64,000 nt of DNA from Escherichia coli (GCF_024502345.1 NZ_JALDNN010000001.1), one strand, 5' to 3'; positions 7,112 through 56,584 are shown, numbered from the stretch's first letter. The notes: generated from the sequence alone by a model not told the origin. Program-made: numbers and translations.

Positions 7112-7190
7112 GTTGTAGGCCGGATAAGGCTTTTACGCCGCATCCGGCAGCCGTTGCCTGATGTGACGCTGGCGCGTCTTATCAGGCCAA
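7112..7190. repeat. REP (repetitive extragenic palindromic) element cluster
   Basis: GCCGGATAAGGC...GCATCCGGCA and GCCTGATGTGACGC...TCTTATCAGGCC palindromic units typical of E. coli REP. Confidence 0.7.
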
Positions 7191-7666: not shown

Positions 7667-8610
7667 TGAGTCGTCCTCGTCGTCGCGGTCGCGACATTAA
7701 CGGCGTTTTGTTGCTGGATAAACCGCAGGGTATGTCCAGCAATGATGCGCTGCAAAAAGTGAAACGGATTTATAACGCCAACCGTGCCGGGCATACCGGT
7801 GCGCTGGACCCGCTGGCAACTGGCATGTTGCCAATTTGCCTCGGGGAAGCGACGAAGTTTTCCCAGTATCTGCTGGACTCCGACAAACGCTATCGGGTCA
7901 TTGCGCGTCTTGGACAGCGTACCGATACTTCTGATGCCGACGGACAAATCGTTGAAGAACGTCCGGTAACCTTTAGCGCAGAGCAACTGGCGGCGGCGCT
8001 GGATACTTTCCGTGGCGATATCGAACAGATCCCTTCGATGTATTCAGCACTGAAATATCAGGGTAAAAAACTGTACGAATATGCGCGTCAGGGCATTGAA
8101 GTACCGCGTGAAGCGCGCCCGATTACCGTTTATGAATTGCTGTTTATTCGCCACGAAGGCAATGAGCTGGAGCTGGAAATTCACTGCTCAAAAGGCACTT
8201 ATATCCGCACCATCATTGATGACCTGGGTGAAAAACTCGGTTGTGGCGCGCATGTTATTTACCTGCGTCGTCTGGCGGTAAGTAAATATCCGGTTGAACG
8301 GATGGTGACCCTGGAACATCTGCGTGAACTGGTCGAACAAGCCGAACAGCAGGATATTCCGGCTGCGGAGTTACTTGATCCATTACTGATGCCAATGGAC
8401 AGTCCAGCTTCGGACTACCCGGTGGTGAATCTTCCGTTAACGTCTTCTGTTTACTTCAAAAATGGTAACCCAGTTCGTACATCCGGTGCGCCGCTGGAAG
8501 GACTGGTTCGCGTTACAGAAGGTGAGAACGGCAAATTTATCGGTATGGGCGAAATTGACGATGAAGGCCGCGTTGCGCCTCGTCGTCTGGTGGTTGAATA
8601 CCCGGCGTAA
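7666..8610 (+). CDS. truB: tRNA pseudouridine-55 synthase
   Basis: 314-aa ORF recognised as TruB; overlaps rbfA stop. Confidence 0.95.
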
Positions 8611-8662: not shown

Positions 8663-9028
<366 letters not shown>

Positions 9029-9043: not shown

Positions 9044-9072
9044 GAAAAGGGGGCCTGAGTGGCCCCTTTTTT
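9044..9072 (+). terminator. rpsO rho-independent terminator
   Basis: gaaaagggggcctgagtggcccctttttt hairpin + T-run. Confidence 0.7.
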
Positions 9073-9075
9073 CAA

Positions 9076-9274
9076 GCTGACGGCAGCAATTCACTGGAAA
9101 CTAATGTATTGTTGCTATGAATGATCTTCCGTTGCAGAGGTTCGCGCGGCTAATGAGAGGCTTTACCCACATTGGGCTGGGTTAGGGTTGTCATTAGTCG
9201 CGAGGATGCGCAGAAGATCGGGTATTAACACCAGTGCCGTAAGGTACTGTCTAAGAAAGAGAAAGGATATTACA
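9076..9274 (+). promoter_or_regulatory. pnp leader region (site of RNase III-processed autoregulatory hairpin in E. coli)
   Basis: Position between rpsO terminator and pnp start; established knowledge for this locus, structure not folded here. Confidence 0.45.
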
Positions 9275-49172: not shown

Positions 49173-50318
49173 ATGAAAATCGTAATCGCCCCAGACTCTT
49201 ATAAAGAAAGTTTATCTGCCAGCGAGGTTGCGCAGGCGATAGAAAAAGGATTTCGGGAAATTTTTCCTGATGCACAGTACGTTTCTATTCCGGTTGCCGA
49301 CGGTGGCGAAGGAACGGTGGAAGCGATGATTGCAGCCACCCAGGGTTCTGAACGTCACGCCTGGGTTACAGGGCCGCTGGGCGAGAAAGTGAATGCCAGT
49401 TGGGGGATCTCCGGCGATGGCAAAACCGCGTTTATTGAAATGGCGGCTGCCAGTGGGCTGGAGCTGGTACCTGCGGAAAAACGCGATCCACTCGTGACCA
49501 CTTCACGCGGCACAGGCGAGTTAATCCTGCAGGCGCTGGAGAGCGGCGCGACAAACATTATTATCGGCATTGGCGGTAGCGCTACAAATGATGGCGGCGC
49601 AGGCATGGTACAGGCGCTGGGGGCGAAATTATGCGACGCCAACGGCAATGAAATTGGTTTTGGCGGCGGTAGTCTTAATACTCTGAATGATATTGATATT
49701 TCCGGCCTCGATCCGCGCTTAAAAGATTGCGTCATTCGCGTCGCTTGTGATGTCACCAATCCGCTGGTGGGCGATAACGGCGCATCGCGCATCTTTGGCC
49801 CACAAAAGGGAGCCAGTGAAGCGATGATTGTTGAGCTGGACAATAACCTCTCTCACTATGCCGATGTCATTAAAAAAGCGCTGCATGTTGATGTGAAAGA
49901 TGTCCCCGGCGCAGGAGCTGCGGGCGGTATGGGTGCGGCGCTAATGGCGTTTCTTGGTGCGGAACTGAAAAGTGGTATTGAAATCGTCACTACGGCGCTG
50001 AATCTGGAGGAACATATTCACGATTGTACGCTGGTGATCACCGGTGAAGGGCGTATTGACAGCCAGAGTATACACGGCAAGGTTCCGATTGGCGTCGCAA
50101 ACGTGGCGAAAAAGTACCATAAACCGGTGATTGGCATTGCGGGTAGCCTGACCAATGATGTTGGCGTTGTACATCAGCATGGCATTGATGCGGTCTTCAG
50201 CGTATTGACCAGTATTGGTACGTTGGACGAAGCATTCCGCGGGGCTTATGACAATATTTACCGTGCTTCACGTAATATCGCCGCGACACTGGCGATTGGA
50301 ATGCGCAACGCGGGGTGA
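49173..50318 (+). CDS. garK: glycerate 2-kinase
   Basis: ORF trimmed to MKIVIAPDSYKESL (381 aa); glycerate kinase family. Confidence 0.85.
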   Translation: MKIVIAPDSYKESLSASEVAQAIEKGFREIFPDAQYVSIPVADGGEGTVEAMIAATQGSERHAWVTGPLGEKVNASWGISGDGKTAFIEMAAASGLELVPAEKRDPLVTTSRGTGELILQALESGATNIIIGIGGSATNDGGAGMVQALGAKLCDANGNEIGFGGGSLNTLNDIDISGLDPRLKDCVIRVACDVTNPLVGDNGASRIFGPQKGASEAMIVELDNNLSHYADVIKKALHVDVKDVPGAGAAGGMGAALMAFLGAELKSGIEIVTTALNLEEHIHDCTLVITGEGRIDSQSIHGKVPIGVANVAKKYHKPVIGIAGSLTNDVGVVHQHGIDAVFSVLTSIGTLDEAFRGAYDNIYRASRNIAATLAIGMRNAG

Positions 50319-50350
50319 CAAGGGCGCGCAAACCCTCTATACTGCGCGCC

Positions 50351-50727
<377 letters not shown>

Positions 50728-50736
50728 GTTTTACGT

Positions 50737-50768
50737 AAAAACCCGCTTCGGCGGGTTTTTGCTTTTGG
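50737..50768 (+). terminator. rnpB rho-independent terminator
   Basis: aaaaacccgcttcggcgggtttttgcttttgg. Confidence 0.7.
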
Positions 50769-50778
50769 AGGGGCAGAA

Positions 50779-50891
50779 AGATGAATGACTGTCCACGACA
50801 CTATACTCAAAAGAAAGCGGCTTATTGGTCAGTTTCACCTCTTTTAACGAAAACCCGGCAGCGTAAACTGGCGGGTTTTTGCTTTTTGGAG
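50779..50891 (+). repeat. direct repeat of the rnpB 3' end plus a second terminator-like hairpin
   Basis: agatgaatgactgtccacgaca...ggtcagtttcacct...gggtttttgcttttggag repeats 50678-50770 with divergence; a third truncated start agatgaat at 50901. Confidence 0.75.
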
Positions 50892-50954
50892 CATAGTGTA
50901 AGATGAATAAATATCTACGGTATTAATAATAGACTTTGTAAGAAATTATTAAGT

Positions 50955-52142
50955 CTATATTGCATTTAAAAGGTCGTAATCATACGTATAGTCCTCTCTG
51001 GTAAAATATTGCTTCTCTGAGTTATAAGCTTCATATGTGTTATATTTTACGACCTCAAAGCAATTGTCTGGAGAATTTTCGTCTTTCTCGATTGTATTAT
51101 CTGGAAGGAATTCCTCTGAGCTAGAGTCCTCTATGTTTAAATCTGTATTGTAATTAATTTTTGGAACGATTAGATAAGCATTTTCTTTGACGCTTTCATA
51201 ATCTTTAATGATTATATCGATGTAATAATCTATTTTTTCTAATGAGAATGCTTTCATCTCTGGTAATTTAATTCTGTTCAAGTAATTGTTAATTTTCGAT
51301 GAGCTTTTATATATTTCTTTTGTTAATTCATTTTCTAATTCATCTGTTAGAGTTGCTCTTGGTATAGATTCTATAATTGCAAGTCTCATAATTTTTAATT
51401 GTTCTTCGGTAATATCTCCAAGCGCATTTAAACAACTTTTGATAAGTTTAATTTTTTCTTCAGAATACATATCGTTAATGCTTGTTATAACAGGCGTTAT
51501 TTTTAGTAAATAATCCCATGAGATTGTGGCGTTTTGTTTTGAACTAACGAAATTTACCTGAAACATGTTGGCATTAGTAAAATCTGTGTCATCCAATTTA
51601 AAAGGATTTAAAATTGTATTGGCCATATGTTTATCTGTAAAATCATAAGGTTCTAAATCGACATTCCGTAAGTCCAGAGAGGATAGATCAACTATACCTC
51701 CAGTCCCACAACTAAAGATAACGTTCAACCTCCTGATTTCATTGTAAATGTCTTTCAATGGGCAATTAACATTAATATTGCCTGTGGATATTTCCTGGTT
51801 TTTTAACGGTTCATTAATTGTAAGTTCACAGGTATTGTCTGATCGTTGAATAATTCGGGCGTTATAACCAAAAAAATCCATACGAAGAGACAAATCATTA
51901 TAAAGAATTACATTTTGTAAGTACGCTAATTCTTTTTGAAAATCACCAGTGATAACACATTTCCCACCTGGTTGTAACGCGTTAAGTAAAGTGACCATTT
52001 CAATAGAGGTCTGTTTTAGTTTTTCTATGCCTGGTGCTAGTGCTTCGAGGTTATTTCCTATGGGGCTTTCAGGAAGGTCATTCATTTTTCGACGGGCTAA
52101 ATCACTACTAATATCATTACCAATTGATGAAACAGGTGACAT
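50955..52142 (-). CDS. yhaC: uncharacterized pentapeptide-repeat-containing protein
   Basis: 395-aa ORF, strongly AT-rich; internal run of 5-residue periodicity (SSLDL RNVDL EPYDF TDKHM ANTIL NPFKL DDTDF TNANM FQVNF). Confidence 0.8.
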   Translation of the reverse strand: MSPVSSIGNDISSDLARRKMNDLPESPIGNNLEALAPGIEKLKQTSIEMVTLLNALQPGGKCVITGDFQKELAYLQNVILYNDLSLRMDFFGYNARIIQRSDNTCELTINEPLKNQEISTGNINVNCPLKDIYNEIRRLNVIFSCGTGGIVDLSSLDLRNVDLEPYDFTDKHMANTILNPFKLDDTDFTNANMFQVNFVSSKQNATISWDYLLKITPVITSINDMYSEEKIKLIKSCLNALGDITEEQLKIMRLAIIESIPRATLTDELENELTKEIYKSSSKINNYLNRIKLPEMKAFSLEKIDYYIDIIIKDYESVKENAYLIVPKINYNTDLNIEDSSSEEFLPDNTIEKDENSPDNCFEVVKYNTYEAYNSEKQYFTREDYTYDYDLLNAI

Positions 52143-52163
52143 TATTTTATCCTTTATAAATAA

Positions 52164-52655
52164 TCAATAAAAATCATTATTAAAATGATCGGGTGAAAAA
52201 AAGAGAACTTGCCAACAATCTGAAGGAATGGCGGTTTTATTAAAGTACGTAGGGGGGGGTAAGATGGCTTCTTTTCGGGTGAATTTTGCACAATACTTAG
52301 AAATCGTCTCCTTAATACATTCCAGCTCTTTTTTATTGACGGCTGAGCAAGTACATTGTTCACCAAAAGGTGCAAAAGTGCCTACATCTAATGTTTGTAT
52401 GATATAATCATCATGTTCTCCTGTAGAAATATCTATGATGAATGGACTCATATTTTCCGGTTGGATTCGGATCATGACAGAAGGAACATCGCCTTGATAG
52501 AAATTCAATGCAGTAATTGCAGATAATACTCTCCGCAGTTCATTACTTATACTGTAAATTTTATTAACGTCATTGGTGGAGACAATTTCTGCAAACTTTC
52601 TTTTTACCGTCCAATAATCAATATTTCTATTGTGATTGTTAACCACTGCGTGCAT
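52164..52655 (-). CDS. yhaB: uncharacterized protein YhaB, 5' end separated from its first ~12 codons by the IS insertion
   Basis: 163-codon ORF from an internal ATG; in-frame N-terminal extension MKGFPIAHIFHPSIPP is reconstituted only when the IS and one TSD copy are removed. Confidence 0.7.
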   Translation of the reverse strand: MHAVVNNHNRNIDYWTVKRKFAEIVSTNDVNKIYSISNELRRVLSAITALNFYQGDVPSVMIRIQPENMSPFIIDISTGEHDDYIIQTLDVGTFAPFGEQCTCSAVNKKELECIKETISKYCAKFTRKEAILPPPTYFNKTAIPSDCWQVLFFSPDHFNNDFY

Positions 52656-52670
52656 TGGCGGGATTGAAGG

Positions 52671-53727
52671 GGCTTTGTTGAATAAATCAGATTTCGGGTA
52701 AGTCTCCCCCGTAGCGGGTTGTGTTTTCAGGCAATACGCACGCTTTCAGGCATACCTGCTTTCGTCATTTTGTTCAGCGCTCGTACCAGGGCCATAGCCT
52801 CTGCAACCTGACCATCGTAGTCACGCAGTGTCAGTGAACCCCCGAACAGCTGTTTTACCCGGTACATCGCCGTTTCCGCTATCGAGCGACGGTTGTAATC
52901 TGTTGTCCATTTCCACCGCGCATTACTCCCGGTCATTCGCTGATTAGCCACTGCACGGTTACGGTCTGCATATTCACCGGGCCAGTAACCCGCACCTTTT
53001 CGGGGAGGGATAAGCGCGCTGATTTTCTTACGCCGCAGTTCATCGTGACATAGCCGGGTATCGTAAGCGCCATCGGCGGCGGCTGACCTGATTTTCCGGT
53101 GGGTTTGCCGGATTAACCCGGGGAAGGCCTCTGAGTCCGTAACGTTGTTCAGCGACAGGTCAGCGCAGATGATTTCATGTGTTTTACTGTCAACGGCGAG
53201 ATGCAGCTTACGCCAGATACGGCGGCGTTCCTGGCCATGCTTTTTGACTTTCCACTCGCCTTCACCGAAGACCTTCAGCCCGGTGGAATCAATTACCAGG
53301 TGTGCGATTTCACCCCGGGTGGGCGTTTTGAAACTGACATTAACCGACTTTGCCCGCCTGCTGACACAGCTGTAATCCGGGCAGCGTAGCGGAACGTTCA
53401 TCAGAGAAAAAATGGAATCAATAAAGCCCTGCGCAGCGCGCAGGGTCAGCCTGAATACGCGTTTAATGACCAGCACAGTCGTGATGGCAAGGTCAGAATA
53501 GCGCTGAGGTCTGCCTCGTGAAGAAGGTGTTGCTGACTCATACCAGGCCTGAATAGCTTCATCATCCAGCCAGAAAGTTATGGAGCCACGGTTGATGAGG
53601 GCTTTATTGTAGGTGGGCCAGTTGGTGATTTTGAACTTTTGCTTTGCCACGGAACGGTCTGCGTTGTCGGGAAGATACGTGATCTGATCCTTCAACTCAG
53701 CAAAAGTTCGATTTATTCAACAAAGCC
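52671..53727 (-). mobile_element. IS903-family (IS5 family, IS903/IS102 group) insertion sequence, 1057 bp, apparently intact
   Basis: 18-bp terminal inverted repeats GGCTTTGTTGAATAAATC at 52671-52688 and 53710-53727; single transposase ORF; flanked by 9-bp direct repeat GATTGAAGG (52662-52670 and 53728-53736). Confidence 0.9.
52727..53650 (-). CDS. IS903-type DDE transposase
   Basis: ORF ...KQKFKITNWPTYNKALINRGSITFWLDD...LVIDSTGLKVFGEGEW...ADGAYD...MPESVRIA; likely GTG start giving 307 aa (track shows 322-aa TTG-initiated frame to 53695). Confidence 0.85.
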   Translation of the reverse strand: MAKQKFKITNWPTYNKALINRGSITFWLDDEAIQAWYESATPSSRGRPQRYSDLAITTVLVIKRVFRLTLRAAQGFIDSIFSLMNVPLRCPDYSCVSRRAKSVNVSFKTPTRGEIAHLVIDSTGLKVFGEGEWKVKKHGQERRRIWRKLHLAVDSKTHEIICADLSLNNVTDSEAFPGLIRQTHRKIRSAAADGAYDTRLCHDELRRKKISALIPPRKGAGYWPGEYADRNRAVANQRMTGSNARWKWTTDYNRRSIAETAMYRVKQLFGGSLTLRDYDGQVAEAMALVRALNKMTKAGMPESVRIA

Positions 53728-54024
53728 GATTGAAGGGTGAAAAATATGTGCAATTGGGAAGCCTTTCATTGATGCCTGCCTTGTCGTCATGACAAACAAT
53801 AATAGATGCTTATTTTCCTCGCACGACACTTACGCACTATCAAAAAACGCTCATTTACCCGGCGTTACAGTAAACGAAGCAACATTCTGTGTCCTACGCT
53901 GATGTAAAGCACAGTGAAAATCCCCCTTGTTGACTTCGTCTGACCTTATCGCGGCGACCAGCAATTATTCGTTTTGTGATCCTCAACACAAAATGCTATT
54001 CGTCGCCTATGAGGGGAGAAGAAT

Positions 54025-54369
54025 TTATGGAAAACGATTGCATTCACAAAATGACGTCCTGTCAGAAGAGAAAAAGTTGACGTTAATCAATTGTTCGAGA
54101 TGATCAATACCTGTATTCGAAATTTTAAAATATTGATAAAATAAATGTTTGTTCTCCAACAAATAGCGTGAAAAAATGTGACGTGCCGCAGTATTTATCG
54201 CTGAAAATGGTTTATTTATAATAAAATTTGAGAACTTGCTCATTAAATTTAACTCAAATTTTGCCTGGTAATTATCCGGTAATTGCTTGAAATATGGTCT
54301 CAGCCCCTTTTTTGTATTAACCACATAACTAATGATGTTATCGCCATAAAATATGGTTATCCCCGTCAT
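54025..54369 (-). CDS. tdcR: threonine dehydratase operon activator TdcR (longest ORF; true start may be internal)
   Basis: AT-rich 114-codon ORF divergent from tdcA; position matches tdcR. Confidence 0.65.
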   Translation of the reverse strand: MTGITIFYGDNIISYVVNTKKGLRPYFKQLPDNYQAKFELNLMSKFSNFIINKPFSAINTAARHIFSRYLLENKHLFYQYFKISNTGIDHLEQLINVNFFSSDRTSFCECNRFP

Positions 54370-54478
54370 TTTTTTTGATAAAAATCAGGGTTTATGCTGA
54401 TTTTTATACTTTAACTTGTTGATATTTAAAGGTATTTAATTGTAATAACGATACCCTGGAAAGTAATGAAAGTTAATT

Positions 54479-54494
54479 TGTGAGTGGTCGCACA
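54479..54494. promoter_or_regulatory. CRP-binding site in tdc promoter (TGTGAgtggtcGCACA)
   Basis: Close match to CRP consensus TGTGA-N6-TCACA about 65-80 bp upstream of tdcA start. Confidence 0.6.
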
Positions 54495-54557
54495 TATCCT
54501 GTTCATTTCATTTTGATACACTTCATGCCGTCAATGAGGTAATTAACGTAGGTCGTT

Positions 54558-55496
54558 ATGAGCACTATTCTTCTTCCGAAAACGCAGCACCTGGTAGTCT
54601 TTCAGGAAGTCATTAGAAGTGGCTCTATCGGCTCGGCTGCAAAAGAATTAGGGTTAACTCAACCGGCCGTCAGTAAAATCATTAACGATATTGAAGATTA
54701 TTTTGGTGTGGAATTAGTGGTGCGGAAAAATACCGGTGTAACATTAACACCTGCCGGTCAATTGTTACTCTCCCGTTCCGAATCCATTACTCGTGAAATG
54801 AAAAATATGGTTAATGAGATAAGCGGTATGTCTTCTGAGGCGGTGGTGGAAGTCTCATTTGGTTTTCCTTCATTGATTGGTTTTACTTTTATGTCAGGGA
54901 TGATCAACAAGTTCAAAGAGGTGTTCCCGAAAGCGCAGGTTTCTATGTATGAAGCGCAACTGTCTTCGTTCTTACCGGCAATCCGCGACGGTCGACTGGA
55001 TTTTGCGATTGGTACGTTAAGTGCAGAAATGAAGCTTCAGGATTTACATGTTGAGCCGCTGTTCGAGTCCGAGTTTGTGCTGGTAGCCAGTAAGTCCCGA
55101 ACATGCACCGGCACCACCACGCTGGAGTCGTTGAAGAACGAACAGTGGGTGTTGCCACAAACCAATATGGGGTACTACAGCGAGCTTCTTACTACGTTAC
55201 AAAGAAATGGCATCAGTATTGAAAACATCGTTAAAACCGACTCAGTCGTGACAATTTATAATCTTGTTCTCAATGCTGATTTCTTAACTGTAATTCCTTG
55301 TGATATGACGTCACCTTTTGGTTCAAATCAATTTATTACTATTCCGGTTGAAGAAACATTACCTGTGGCACAATATGCCGCGGTATGGTCGAAAAATTAT
55401 CGTATTAAAAAAGCAGCATCGGTTTTGGTGGAATTAGCCAAAGAGTATTCATCTTATAATGGGTGTAGACGAAGGCAATTAATAGAAGTTGGTTAG
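54558..55496 (+). CDS. tdcA: LysR-family transcriptional activator of tdc operon
   Basis: 312-aa ORF with N-terminal HTH; recognised as TdcA. Confidence 0.9.
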   Translation: MSTILLPKTQHLVVFQEVIRSGSIGSAAKELGLTQPAVSKIINDIEDYFGVELVVRKNTGVTLTPAGQLLLSRSESITREMKNMVNEISGMSSEAVVEVSFGFPSLIGFTFMSGMINKFKEVFPKAQVSMYEAQLSSFLPAIRDGRLDFAIGTLSAEMKLQDLHVEPLFESEFVLVASKSRTCTGTTTLESLKNEQWVLPQTNMGYYSELLTTLQRNGISIENIVKTDSVVTIYNLVLNADFLTVIPCDMTSPFGSNQFITIPVEETLPVAQYAAVWSKNYRIKKAASVLVELAKEYSSYNGCRRRQLIEVG

Positions 55497-55594
55497 TTAT
55501 TTGTTTTTATTTAAACATAAATAATCCACCTGTCTGTTTTGCAGGTGTCGGTTACGGTTACCTACATATTTAATTCAGGCGAAGAGGTTTTATA

Positions 55595-56584
55595 ATGCAT
55601 ATTACATACGATCTGCCGGTTGCTATTGATGACATTATTGAAGCGAAACAACGACTGGCTGGGCGAATTTATAAAACAGGCATGCCTCGCTCAAACTATT
55701 TTAGTGAACGTTGCAAAGGTGAAATATTCCTGAAGTTTGAAAATATGCAGCGTACGGGTTCATTTAAAATTCGTGGCGCATTTAATAAATTAAGTTCACT
55801 GACTGATGCGGAAAAACGTAAAGGTGTAGTGGCCTGTTCTGCGGGCAACCATGCGCAAGGGGTTTCGCTCTCCTGCGCGATGCTGGGTATCGACGGTAAA
55901 GTGGTGATGCCAAAAGGTGCGCCAAAATCCAAAGTAGCGGCAACGTGCGACTACTCCGCAGAAGTCGTTCTGCATGGTGATAATTTCAACGACACTATCG
56001 CTAAAGTGAGCGAAATTGTCGAAATGGAAGGCCGTATTTTTATCCCACCTTACGATGATCCGAAAGTGATTGCTGGCCAGGGAACGATTGGTCTGGAAAT
56101 TATGGAAGATCTCTATGATGTCGATAACGTGATTGTGCCAATTGGTGGTGGCGGTTTAATTGCTGGTATTGCGGTGGCAATTAAATCTATTAACCCGACC
56201 ATTCGTGTTATTGGCGTACAGTCTGAAAACGTTCACGGCATGGCGGCTTCTTTCCACTCCGGAGAAATAACCACGCACCGAACTACCGGCACCCTGGCGG
56301 ATGGTTGTGATGTCTCCCGCCCGGGTAATTTAACTTACGAAATCGTTCGTGAATTAGTCGATGACATCGTGCTGGTCAGCGAAGACGAAATCAGAAACAG
56401 TATGATTGCCTTAATTCAGCGCAATAAAGTCGTCACCGAAGGCGCAGGCGCTCTGGCATGTGCTGCATTATTAAGCGGTAAATTAGACCAATATATTCAA
56501 AACAGAAAAACCGTCAGTATTATTTCCGGCGGCAATATCGATCTTTCTCGCGTCTCTCAAATCACCGGTTTCGTTGACGCTTAA
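55595..56584 (+). CDS. tdcB: catabolic threonine dehydratase (PLP-dependent)
   Basis: 329-aa ORF with PLP-lysine motif SFKIRGA. Confidence 0.95.

Follow-up and report, generated by a model that had tools for sequence, protein, structure and literature searches.

The H-NS-silenced orphan (ORFan) genes of Escherichia coli K-12 (PMC3661553, PMC12218254) are the closest described counterparts of the locus considered here, the yhaB-yhaC gene pair (yhaBC) in a stretch of 64,000 nt, the window, from an E. coli genome (GCF_024502345.1, NZ_JALDNN010000001.1). In K-12, yhaC has been listed as a promoter island that was H-NS-bound in all data sets compared (PMC3661553, Table 1) and has been predicted to be foreign by the methods compiled in the same study, and the yhaB-yhaC operon has been assigned to a young phylostratum, beside prophage operons (PMC12218254). 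The foreign origin of yhaC is already predicted in the K-12 literature, and the locus is an ordinary and largely known one. A first-pass annotation of the window had tentatively read the pair as the cargo left over from an old islet, brought by an integrase to the 3' end of rnpB, the neighbouring gene for RNase P RNA. Comparison of the sequences leads us instead to the view that yhaBC is probably an old, AT-rich operon of orphan genes restricted to Escherichia, which would have been acquired anciently and would now be eroding.

Coordinates are those of the whole window, in which the order gar-rnpB-yhaC-yhaB-tdcR-tdc is that of K-12 with one extra insertion sequence (IS), identified as IS903B; the DNA from rnpB to tdcA is fully occupied by rnpB repeat units, yhaC, yhaB, IS903B and tdcR. 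The orphan gene yhaC (50955-52142, minus strand) is an open reading frame (ORF) of 395 aa, convergent with rnpB, which matched the YhaC equivalog model NCBIfam NF007262 with 853.9 bits, and the body of yhaB (52164-52670, minus strand) corresponds to codons 12-179 in the K-12-type gene and yields an ORF of 163 aa when read from its first in-frame ATG, at 52655. That the two genes are AT-rich and of no known function, as first proposed, was borne out. The windowed GC and codon-position profiles suggested at that stage were run and gave a GC content of 0.27-0.37 over 50.8-52.6 kb against approximately 0.52-0.56 in the gar genes, and a GC content at third codon positions (GC3) of 0.27 for yhaC and 0.305 for yhaB against 0.52-0.61 for garP, garL, garR and garK. 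The AT-rich block was wider than had been stated, also taking in tdcR and the tdcR-tdcA intergenic region as far as the tdcA promoter region at approximately 54.4 kb. tdcR, in its 72-aa form (54025-54243, minus strand; NCBIfam NF008507, 174.5 bits) and followed by tdcA, tdcB and tdcC, has the same orientation as yhaB and yhaC, a GC3 of 0.315, and belongs to the same hypervariable block; among the loci compared, it occurs at this place in Escherichia only. Matches to sigma-70-like promoters numbered 19 over 50300-54600, against 10.0 +/- 3.6 expected from shuffled sequences (about twofold), an excess that agrees with the published 'promoter island' in yhaC.

The restricted distribution of the pair was evident at every level of search. 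Homologues of YhaC and YhaB were confined to E. coli, Shigella and Escherichia, all 74 relatives of YhaC and all 26 of YhaB belonging to E. coli or Shigella where an organism was named, and an exhaustive HMMER search with a YhaC profile against 1.84 billion representative proteins found one full-length YhaC cluster. No match to yhaC or yhaB was obtained by tblastn against 50,697 phage records. Four matches in 'plasmid' records (NZ_CP134663.1, NZ_CP141089.1, NZ_OL790696.1 and NZ_MG591698.1) came from three records of chromosome size (4.8-4.9 Mb) and one with gar-yhaCB-tdc context, the 354-kb record bearing a chromosomal tdc-yhaBC-gar segment; these are probably mislabelled records or chromosomal fragments. 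When one genome per species was scanned with the rnpB 3' end, 22 loci were recovered, E. fergusonii not being among them. The representatives of six other Escherichia species had garK-rnpB-tdcR-tdcA, with 240-600 bp from rnpB to tdcR and no yhaBC, and Kluyvera genomosp. 1 had garK-rnpB-0.7 kb-tdcA without tdcR. Traces of the pair were recognised in E. albertii, where a piece of the 5' end of yhaB survives at 72% identity, and in Escherichia sp. MOD1-EC7003, where a 76-nt yhaC remnant still reads as residues ~313-338; these remnants imply that yhaBC predates the species split and was lost repeatedly. In four other Escherichia the junction lay inside a variant rnpB unit of the type described below, and not at the position where the array of E. 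coli ends.

Within E. coli, we surveyed 5426 complete genomes, scoring yhaBC as present where at least 80% of the interval from the rnpB flank to yhaB was found. The pair was held by 4319 genomes and one common deletion junction was found in 1063, among them the type strain ATCC 11775 and SYNB1934, which we take to be a derivative of Nissle 1917 (both strains presumably belonging to phylogroup B2); 5382 of the 5426 thus had either the pair or this one type of deletion, the other 44, of which strain 300444 is described below, being in other states. Strain N56, which has the common junction, retains three pieces, namely approximately 60 nt from the 3' end of yhaC, 63 nt from its interior and approximately 100 nt from the 5' end of yhaB. 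The E. coli genomes lacking yhaBC are therefore products of internal deletion with remnants, that is of gene decay, and do not represent an empty attachment site; no precise empty site was found among the yhaBC-less genomes compared. Decay was also apparent at the protein level, where many database variants of YhaB are C-terminal frameshifts, one such cluster alone having 3287 member sequences. The frameshifted forms (P0077, P0078, P0080, P0085 and P0089) enter an alternative frame, which can be seen in the window as a 73-aa ORF at 52154-52375, in the yhaB region at 52164-52400.

In the window, yhaB is not intact. IS903B (IS5 family, 1057 bp with 18-bp inverted ends; 52671-53727, minus strand), which is 100% identical to plasmid copies and whose transposase ORF (52727-53695, minus strand) matched Pfam DDE_Tnp_1_5 and DDE_Tnp_1, has inserted within codons 12-14 of the gene, between the two copies of a 9-bp target-site duplication, GATTGAAGG, at 52662-52670 and 53728-53736. 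Alignment to K-12 YhaB placed the severed 5' end of the gene, codons 1-11 (MKGFPIAHIFH), at 53737-53769 on the minus strand, from where native upstream DNA runs to tdcR. The first-pass annotation was right in seeing an IS903-like element here, but had taken it as the boundary of the gene pair, whereas it sits inside yhaB, and the yhaB end that had been given, 52703, lies 33 nt within IS903B. The insertion has cut the yhaBC operon from its promoter and from the yhaB start codon, and expression of yhaBC in this strain is expected to be lost or strongly reduced. Since the yhaB::IS903B junction of the window was absent from all 5426 complete genomes, the insertion is recent, private and strain-specific. 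A separate IS903B was observed in strain 300444 (locus L030, 7000-8800), directly after the rnpB units, where it replaces yhaC, yhaB, tdcR and the 5' part of tdcA. Together, the two copies indicate that the same IS family has inserted twice at this AT-rich position, in one case together with a deletion of adjacent DNA.

Selection on the two genes was assessed from four alleles, those of the window, K-12, WP8-S18-ESBL-07 and the divergent type of locus L004, as the ratio of nonsynonymous to synonymous divergence (dN/dS). The four alleles keep intact frames, with a dN/dS of 0.28-0.40 for yhaC across synonymous divergences (dS) of 0.03-0.63 and mostly 0.15-0.28 for yhaB, with a value of 1.29 for one yhaB pair at very small distances. 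In the flanking genes garK, tdcA and tdcB, dS was 0.03-0.13 and dN/dS 0-0.1. Because the frames are intact and dN/dS is approximately 0.3-0.4, yhaC and yhaB are real genes, coding sequences under relaxed purifying selection.

The pentapeptide-repeat segment that had been proposed for YhaC was confirmed, though it is short. Residues 152-201 (51540-51689, minus strand) form ten pentads, DLSSL DLRNV DLEPY DFTDK HMANT ILNPF KLDDT DFTNA NMFQV NFVSS, with a hydrophobic residue at a fixed position, and a run of this length was matched by only 20 of 20,000 shuffles of YhaC. In the exhaustive HMMER search, distant matches were confined to residues ~140-210, and all seven of those tested were strong PF00805 pentapeptide proteins. 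Against the Pfam models of this family (PF00805/PF13599), YhaC itself remained under the gathering cut-offs, scoring 15.9 bits with Pentapeptide_4, where 38 are required, and 12.4 bits with Pentapeptide, where 20.2 are required. Searches of the PDB by sequence and by profile returned only marginal pentapeptide matches for YhaC (E = 0.02-0.7) and nothing for YhaB; family PF27690 is recorded for full-length relatives of YhaB. The segment is real but short, and would make approximately 2.5 turns of beta-helix if folded as in the family. It has an N-terminal region on one side and a C-terminal part, helical and acidic, on the other, and a scaffold for binding protein or DNA, formed around a short beta-helix, is the most that may be proposed as a role for YhaC. 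Structure prediction, which had been suggested for both proteins, confirmed neither fold: AlphaFold2 on shallow alignments gave a mean pLDDT of 33.8 for YhaC, with no strands in 150-205, and 34.0 for YhaB, and the models were too poor for use. PADLOC and PHROGs gave no credible match for YhaC or YhaB, which leaves a defence-system or a phage origin without support.

Divergence between strains was concentrated in a block at 50800-54450, from the first rnpB terminator to the tdcR-tdcA spacer, and extended to tdcR and the intergenic DNA. When the window was compared with loci L002 (K-12), L003 and L004, identity was 97-100% in the flanks, and within the block 87-97% to K-12 and 66-88% to L004; dS in the block was 0.2-0.6, with a value of 0.21 for yhaC between the window and K-12, against 0.03-0.13 in the flanks. 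A YhaC allele of 62% identity occupies the same locus, and there is a recombinant allele, P0029, that joins the two main types; the notion that the 62%-identity proteins are paralogues from elsewhere in the genome was ruled out by their position at this locus. Old or imported haplotypes, exchanged via the conserved flanks, would fit better than selection on one protein, given that the divergence spans the block and that dN/dS remains well below 1.

The AT-rich genes begin just beyond rnpB (50351-50727, plus strand), which matched the class A RNase P RNA model, Rfam RF00010, over its full length (1-367) with 318.6 bits. The first-pass annotation had noted a tandem duplication of the rnpB 3' end, and repeat and motif matches uphold it for the last 50 nt plus terminator: the 22-mer AGATGAATGACTGTCCACGACA is present twice, at 50678 and 50779, and once more in degenerate form at 50901, and GGCTTATCGGTCAGTTTCACCT, present at 50706, is repeated at 50819 with a single mismatch, the chance expectation being zero in each case. 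Unit 1 (50678-50778, plus strand) comprises, besides the true last 50 nt of rnpB, a spacer and an intrinsic terminator made up of the hairpin CCCGCTTCGGCGGG and a T-run. Unit 2 (50779-50900, plus strand) is of a variant type, a pseudo-3' end of rnpB with its own terminator hairpin at 50850-50879, in which a 12-nt insertion after CACGAC and a CC-to-AG change together destroy the conserved ACAGAACCCGGC stretch. A degenerate 22-nt stub of a third unit, AGATGAATAAATATCTACGGTA (50901-50922, plus strand, the end being approximate), stops 32 nt short of the yhaC stop codon and was found in all E. coli compared. The units are strictly head-to-tail with no foreign DNA between them, each with host terminator and spacer. 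Tandem Repeats Finder reported nothing over 50000-54600, the array having only ~2.2 copies with indels, and an Rfam search of 50728-51000 with permissive E-values gave a weak partial RNase P match over 50728-50840 and otherwise terminator-like noise only. Motifs of the rnpB end (up to 3 mismatches) were restricted to 50678-50840, none being distal to the gene pair, and blastn-short of the unit against 50950-56000 yielded chance matches only (E >= 0.8), with no copy from yhaC to tdcB.

The number of units ranged from 1 to 4 among E. coli strains and other Escherichia, with one in N56, two in the window and in WP8-S18-ESBL-07, four in K-12 and in strain SCPM-O-B-8794, and three in E. whittamii. 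Elsewhere we counted three in K. pneumoniae, two to three in two Citrobacter species, and one each in Salmonella, Kluyvera, Kosakonia, Enterobacter, Intestinirhabdus and Pantoea. The distance from rnpB to the yhaC stop varied from 613 bp in K-12 (locus L002, 3775-4387; four units, the stub and REP-like palindromes) to 227 bp in the window (50728-50954; two units, no REP); a REP-like element was also seen in E. albertii, after its truncated second unit. All extra units that keep the 12-nt-insertion stretch are of one variant, common to Escherichia, Citrobacter and Klebsiella (window, 50779-50900; locus L027, ~8110-8300; loci L011 and L017, just 3' of rnpB), and this variant is near base-for-base alike across the three genera, whereas the neighbouring intergenic DNA could not be aligned. 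It is followed by a lipoprotein-like gene and yhaK/yhaJ in Klebsiella and by a nagB-like gene in Citrobacter, with no yhaBC in either. Within any one genome the units have been homogenised over their terminator part, a sign that exchange between them continues; RNAalifold found an invariant hairpin with no covariation, which is uninformative as to a structured RNA. The repeats are thus a tandem duplication of the rnpB tail and terminator, separate from yhaBC and older than it, because the variant is found in Klebsiella and Citrobacter without yhaBC. Copy number changes by unequal exchange, and the repeats are not attachment-site scars. The conservation of the variant suggests either function or repeated homogenisation. 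It is rather improbable, in our estimate, that the variant unit serves termination or 3' processing of RNase P RNA, or that it marks a recombination-prone site driving the turnover of downstream genes, with yhaBC-tdcR as one capture.

The 3' ends of stable RNA genes are classic targets of integration, and the idea that an integrase had put an element into the 3' end of rnpB, perhaps in several rounds, with the duplicated ends as attL/attR-type scars and yhaBC as leftover cargo, is favoured by the foreign composition of the genes beside the rnpB copies and by the way gene content 3' of rnpB differs by genus. A survey of that region, which the first-pass annotation had suggested for E. coli and Shigella, did find such variation between genera, namely the tdc operon, cyuPA-like genes, yhaK/yhaJ, nagB-like genes, IS copies or an AT-rich regulator-like gene, but, IS copies aside, none of these is a mobile-element gene. 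No integrase or fragment of one was present in the window, Pfam finding only the IS transposase between rnpB and tdcA, and no integrase-like ORF was seen 1-12 kb 3' of rnpB in 12 other Enterobacteriaceae loci, as judged by ORF listing rather than by Pfam. Moreover, the rnpB copies all lie on the rnpB side of yhaBC and are head-to-tail units in varying number, each with its host terminator and spacer; the variant unit occurs in genera without yhaBC; the yhaBC-less genomes show internal deletions in place of precise excisions; and a literature search found no paper on rnpB as an attB site. Hence the claim that the duplicated ends are attachment-site scars fails each of the tests applied, and integration at rnpB is very unlikely as the origin of the pair. 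Of the wider proposal of an old islet, the foreign composition, the restriction to Escherichia and Shigella and the variable neighbourhood stand, and the integrase route at rnpB does not. The DNA just 3' of rnpB is a gene-order break between genera, a site that gathers different insertions in different lineages, and nothing links the break to site-specific recombination. Two Salmonella loci may be recorded here in their own right: in S. enterica subsp. arizonae (L014) an IS10-like end breaks the rnpB terminator hairpin and is followed by an IS4-family transposase-like ORF, and in subsp. diarizonae (L023, +302 onwards) rnpB is followed by an ORF, AT-rich and at least 278 aa long.

Some secreted effectors contain pentapeptide segments, and yhaBC could be envisaged as a polymorphic conflict or host-interaction locus, for example a secreted effector and its partner, maintained by balancing or diversifying selection. 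The intact frames at a dN/dS of 0.3-0.4 over dS values up to 0.63, the alleles down to 62% aa identity at one locus together with the recombinant P0029, the retention of the pair by 80% of E. coli genomes and the place of yhaC among the top positive-selection signals in PMC9110714 would all agree with this. However, the divergence is shared by the intergenic DNA and tdcR, as befits imported or old haplotypes, all pairwise dN/dS values except that of one yhaB pair are well below 1, yhaB is often frameshifted and the pair repeatedly lost, and the defence, phage and solved-structure libraries gave no match, so that we consider such a role unlikely. It might equally be supposed that yhaBC is native, having arisen or diverged in place in the AT-rich rnpB-tdc spacer as a fast-evolving pair that was never transferred. 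The corresponding spacer of Kluyvera is already AT-rich (GC 0.34-0.40) without yhaBC, our searches found no donor and no copy on a mobile element, and the whole block evolves fast, tdcR included, its product having 55-82% aa identity between Escherichia species against 98-99% for TdcA. Nevertheless, a 395-aa protein with a true pentapeptide segment and under purifying selection is not readily derived from a 0.7-kb spacer, a GC3 of 0.27 is far off the host norm even for weakly expressed genes, and the methods compiled in PMC3661553 score yhaC as foreign; an origin in place is thus very unlikely.

Under the interpretation that we prefer, of an anciently acquired and now eroding operon, yhaB-yhaC would have been taken up, probably with the co-oriented tdcR, from an AT-rich source by some route, and its arrival in the AT-rich spacer that separates the rnpB terminator from the tdc promoter region would predate the split of the Escherichia species. 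The operon would be read from upstream of yhaB toward rnpB, and hence convergently with it, the intrinsic terminators after rnpB parting the two transcription units. It is probably kept largely silent by H-NS, as K-12 chromatin data show H-NS at yhaC. It would be dispensable, being internally deleted in ~20% of E. coli genomes and in other Escherichia, and the C-terminal frameshifts of yhaB in many strains, together with the IS903B insertion, would represent further erosion. Several points weigh against this account. Horizontal acquisition is argued from composition and taxonomic restriction alone, and silencing by H-NS, being taken from the K-12 literature, is inferred for the present strain. 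Recombination, as opposed to vertical descent, is in principle another possible source of the E. albertii and MOD1-EC7003 remnants. Finally, the block is far more diverged than its flanks and yhaC has been flagged as positively selected (PMC9110714), which simple neutral decay does not explain.

The remaining features of the window are unremarkable. The genes garP, garL, garR and garK extend up to 50318 on the plus strand, and a tRNA (2154-2227), the rimP leader (2319-2419), naRNA4 (7118-7188), the S15 leader (8701-8815) and SraG (9045-9216) are ordinary RNA features. Inside tdcR, TTGACGTTAATCAA at 54077-54090 is, as a sequence match, a near-consensus FNR-type site; it corresponds to the FNR target given for yhaB from chromatin immunoprecipitation (ChIP) in K-12 (PMC1802558), and was kept in the other Escherichia species examined, E. 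albertii excepted.

Set beside known systems, the parts of this locus prove familiar to different degrees. The IS903B copy (IS5 family) has all the features of that element and is an ordinary copy, only its insertion site being unique among the 5426 complete genomes. YhaC resembles the PF00805 proteins, whether DNA mimics of the Qnr/McbG/MfpA type or effectors like PipB2, in its ten pentads, each of which, as in the family pattern A[D/N]LXX, centres on a hydrophobic residue that in many cases follows D or N. Yet in Qnr/McbG-type proteins nearly the whole of ~200 aa is repeat, whereas in YhaC the repeat takes up only ~50 of 395 residues, scores below the Pfam cut-offs, has a putative fold, and is embedded in a protein otherwise without relatives and without a resistance or effector context.

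The locus also recalls the genomic islands found at the ends of tRNA and tmRNA genes, as DNA of foreign composition beside a stable RNA gene with a duplicated 3' end. It differs from them in that no integrase is present, the repeats are tandem and not flanking, the unit includes host terminator and spacer, there is no precise empty site, and the cargo is both younger and less widespread than the repeats. Tandem 3'-end copies of a stable RNA gene should accordingly not be taken for integration scars unless a flanking copy, an integrase or a precise empty site accompanies them. The proper counterpart of the repeats is the rnpB 3'-flank array of K-12, which the window resembles in its head-to-tail units of ~101-122 nt, each made up of an rnpB tail and an intrinsic terminator; K-12 has four units and a stub, with REP-like elements before yhaC, and the window has two units and a stub without REP-like elements. 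Reed and Altman, and Sakamoto et al., both in PNAS in 1983, reportedly described tandem repeats in the E. coli rnpB 3' flank, and the K-12 array has been known since the 1980s. The conservation of the variant unit across genera may be of interest to specialists, as may the unusually deep haplotypes of the block, with up to 34% nucleotide divergence against 1-3% in the flanks.

As a whole, the locus matters little: old, AT-rich and made up of orphan genes, the operon is a textbook example of one in slow loss from E. coli. It is like the H-NS-silenced orphan genes of K-12 in being AT-rich, taxonomically restricted, dense in promoter-like sites, patchy and decaying, and over 200-nt windows its genes are 87-97% identical in nucleotide sequence to the K-12 yhaB and yhaC orthologues. 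It differs from them in that yhaB is split by IS903B and yhaC has diverged to a dS of 0.21, the binding of H-NS being that recorded in K-12.

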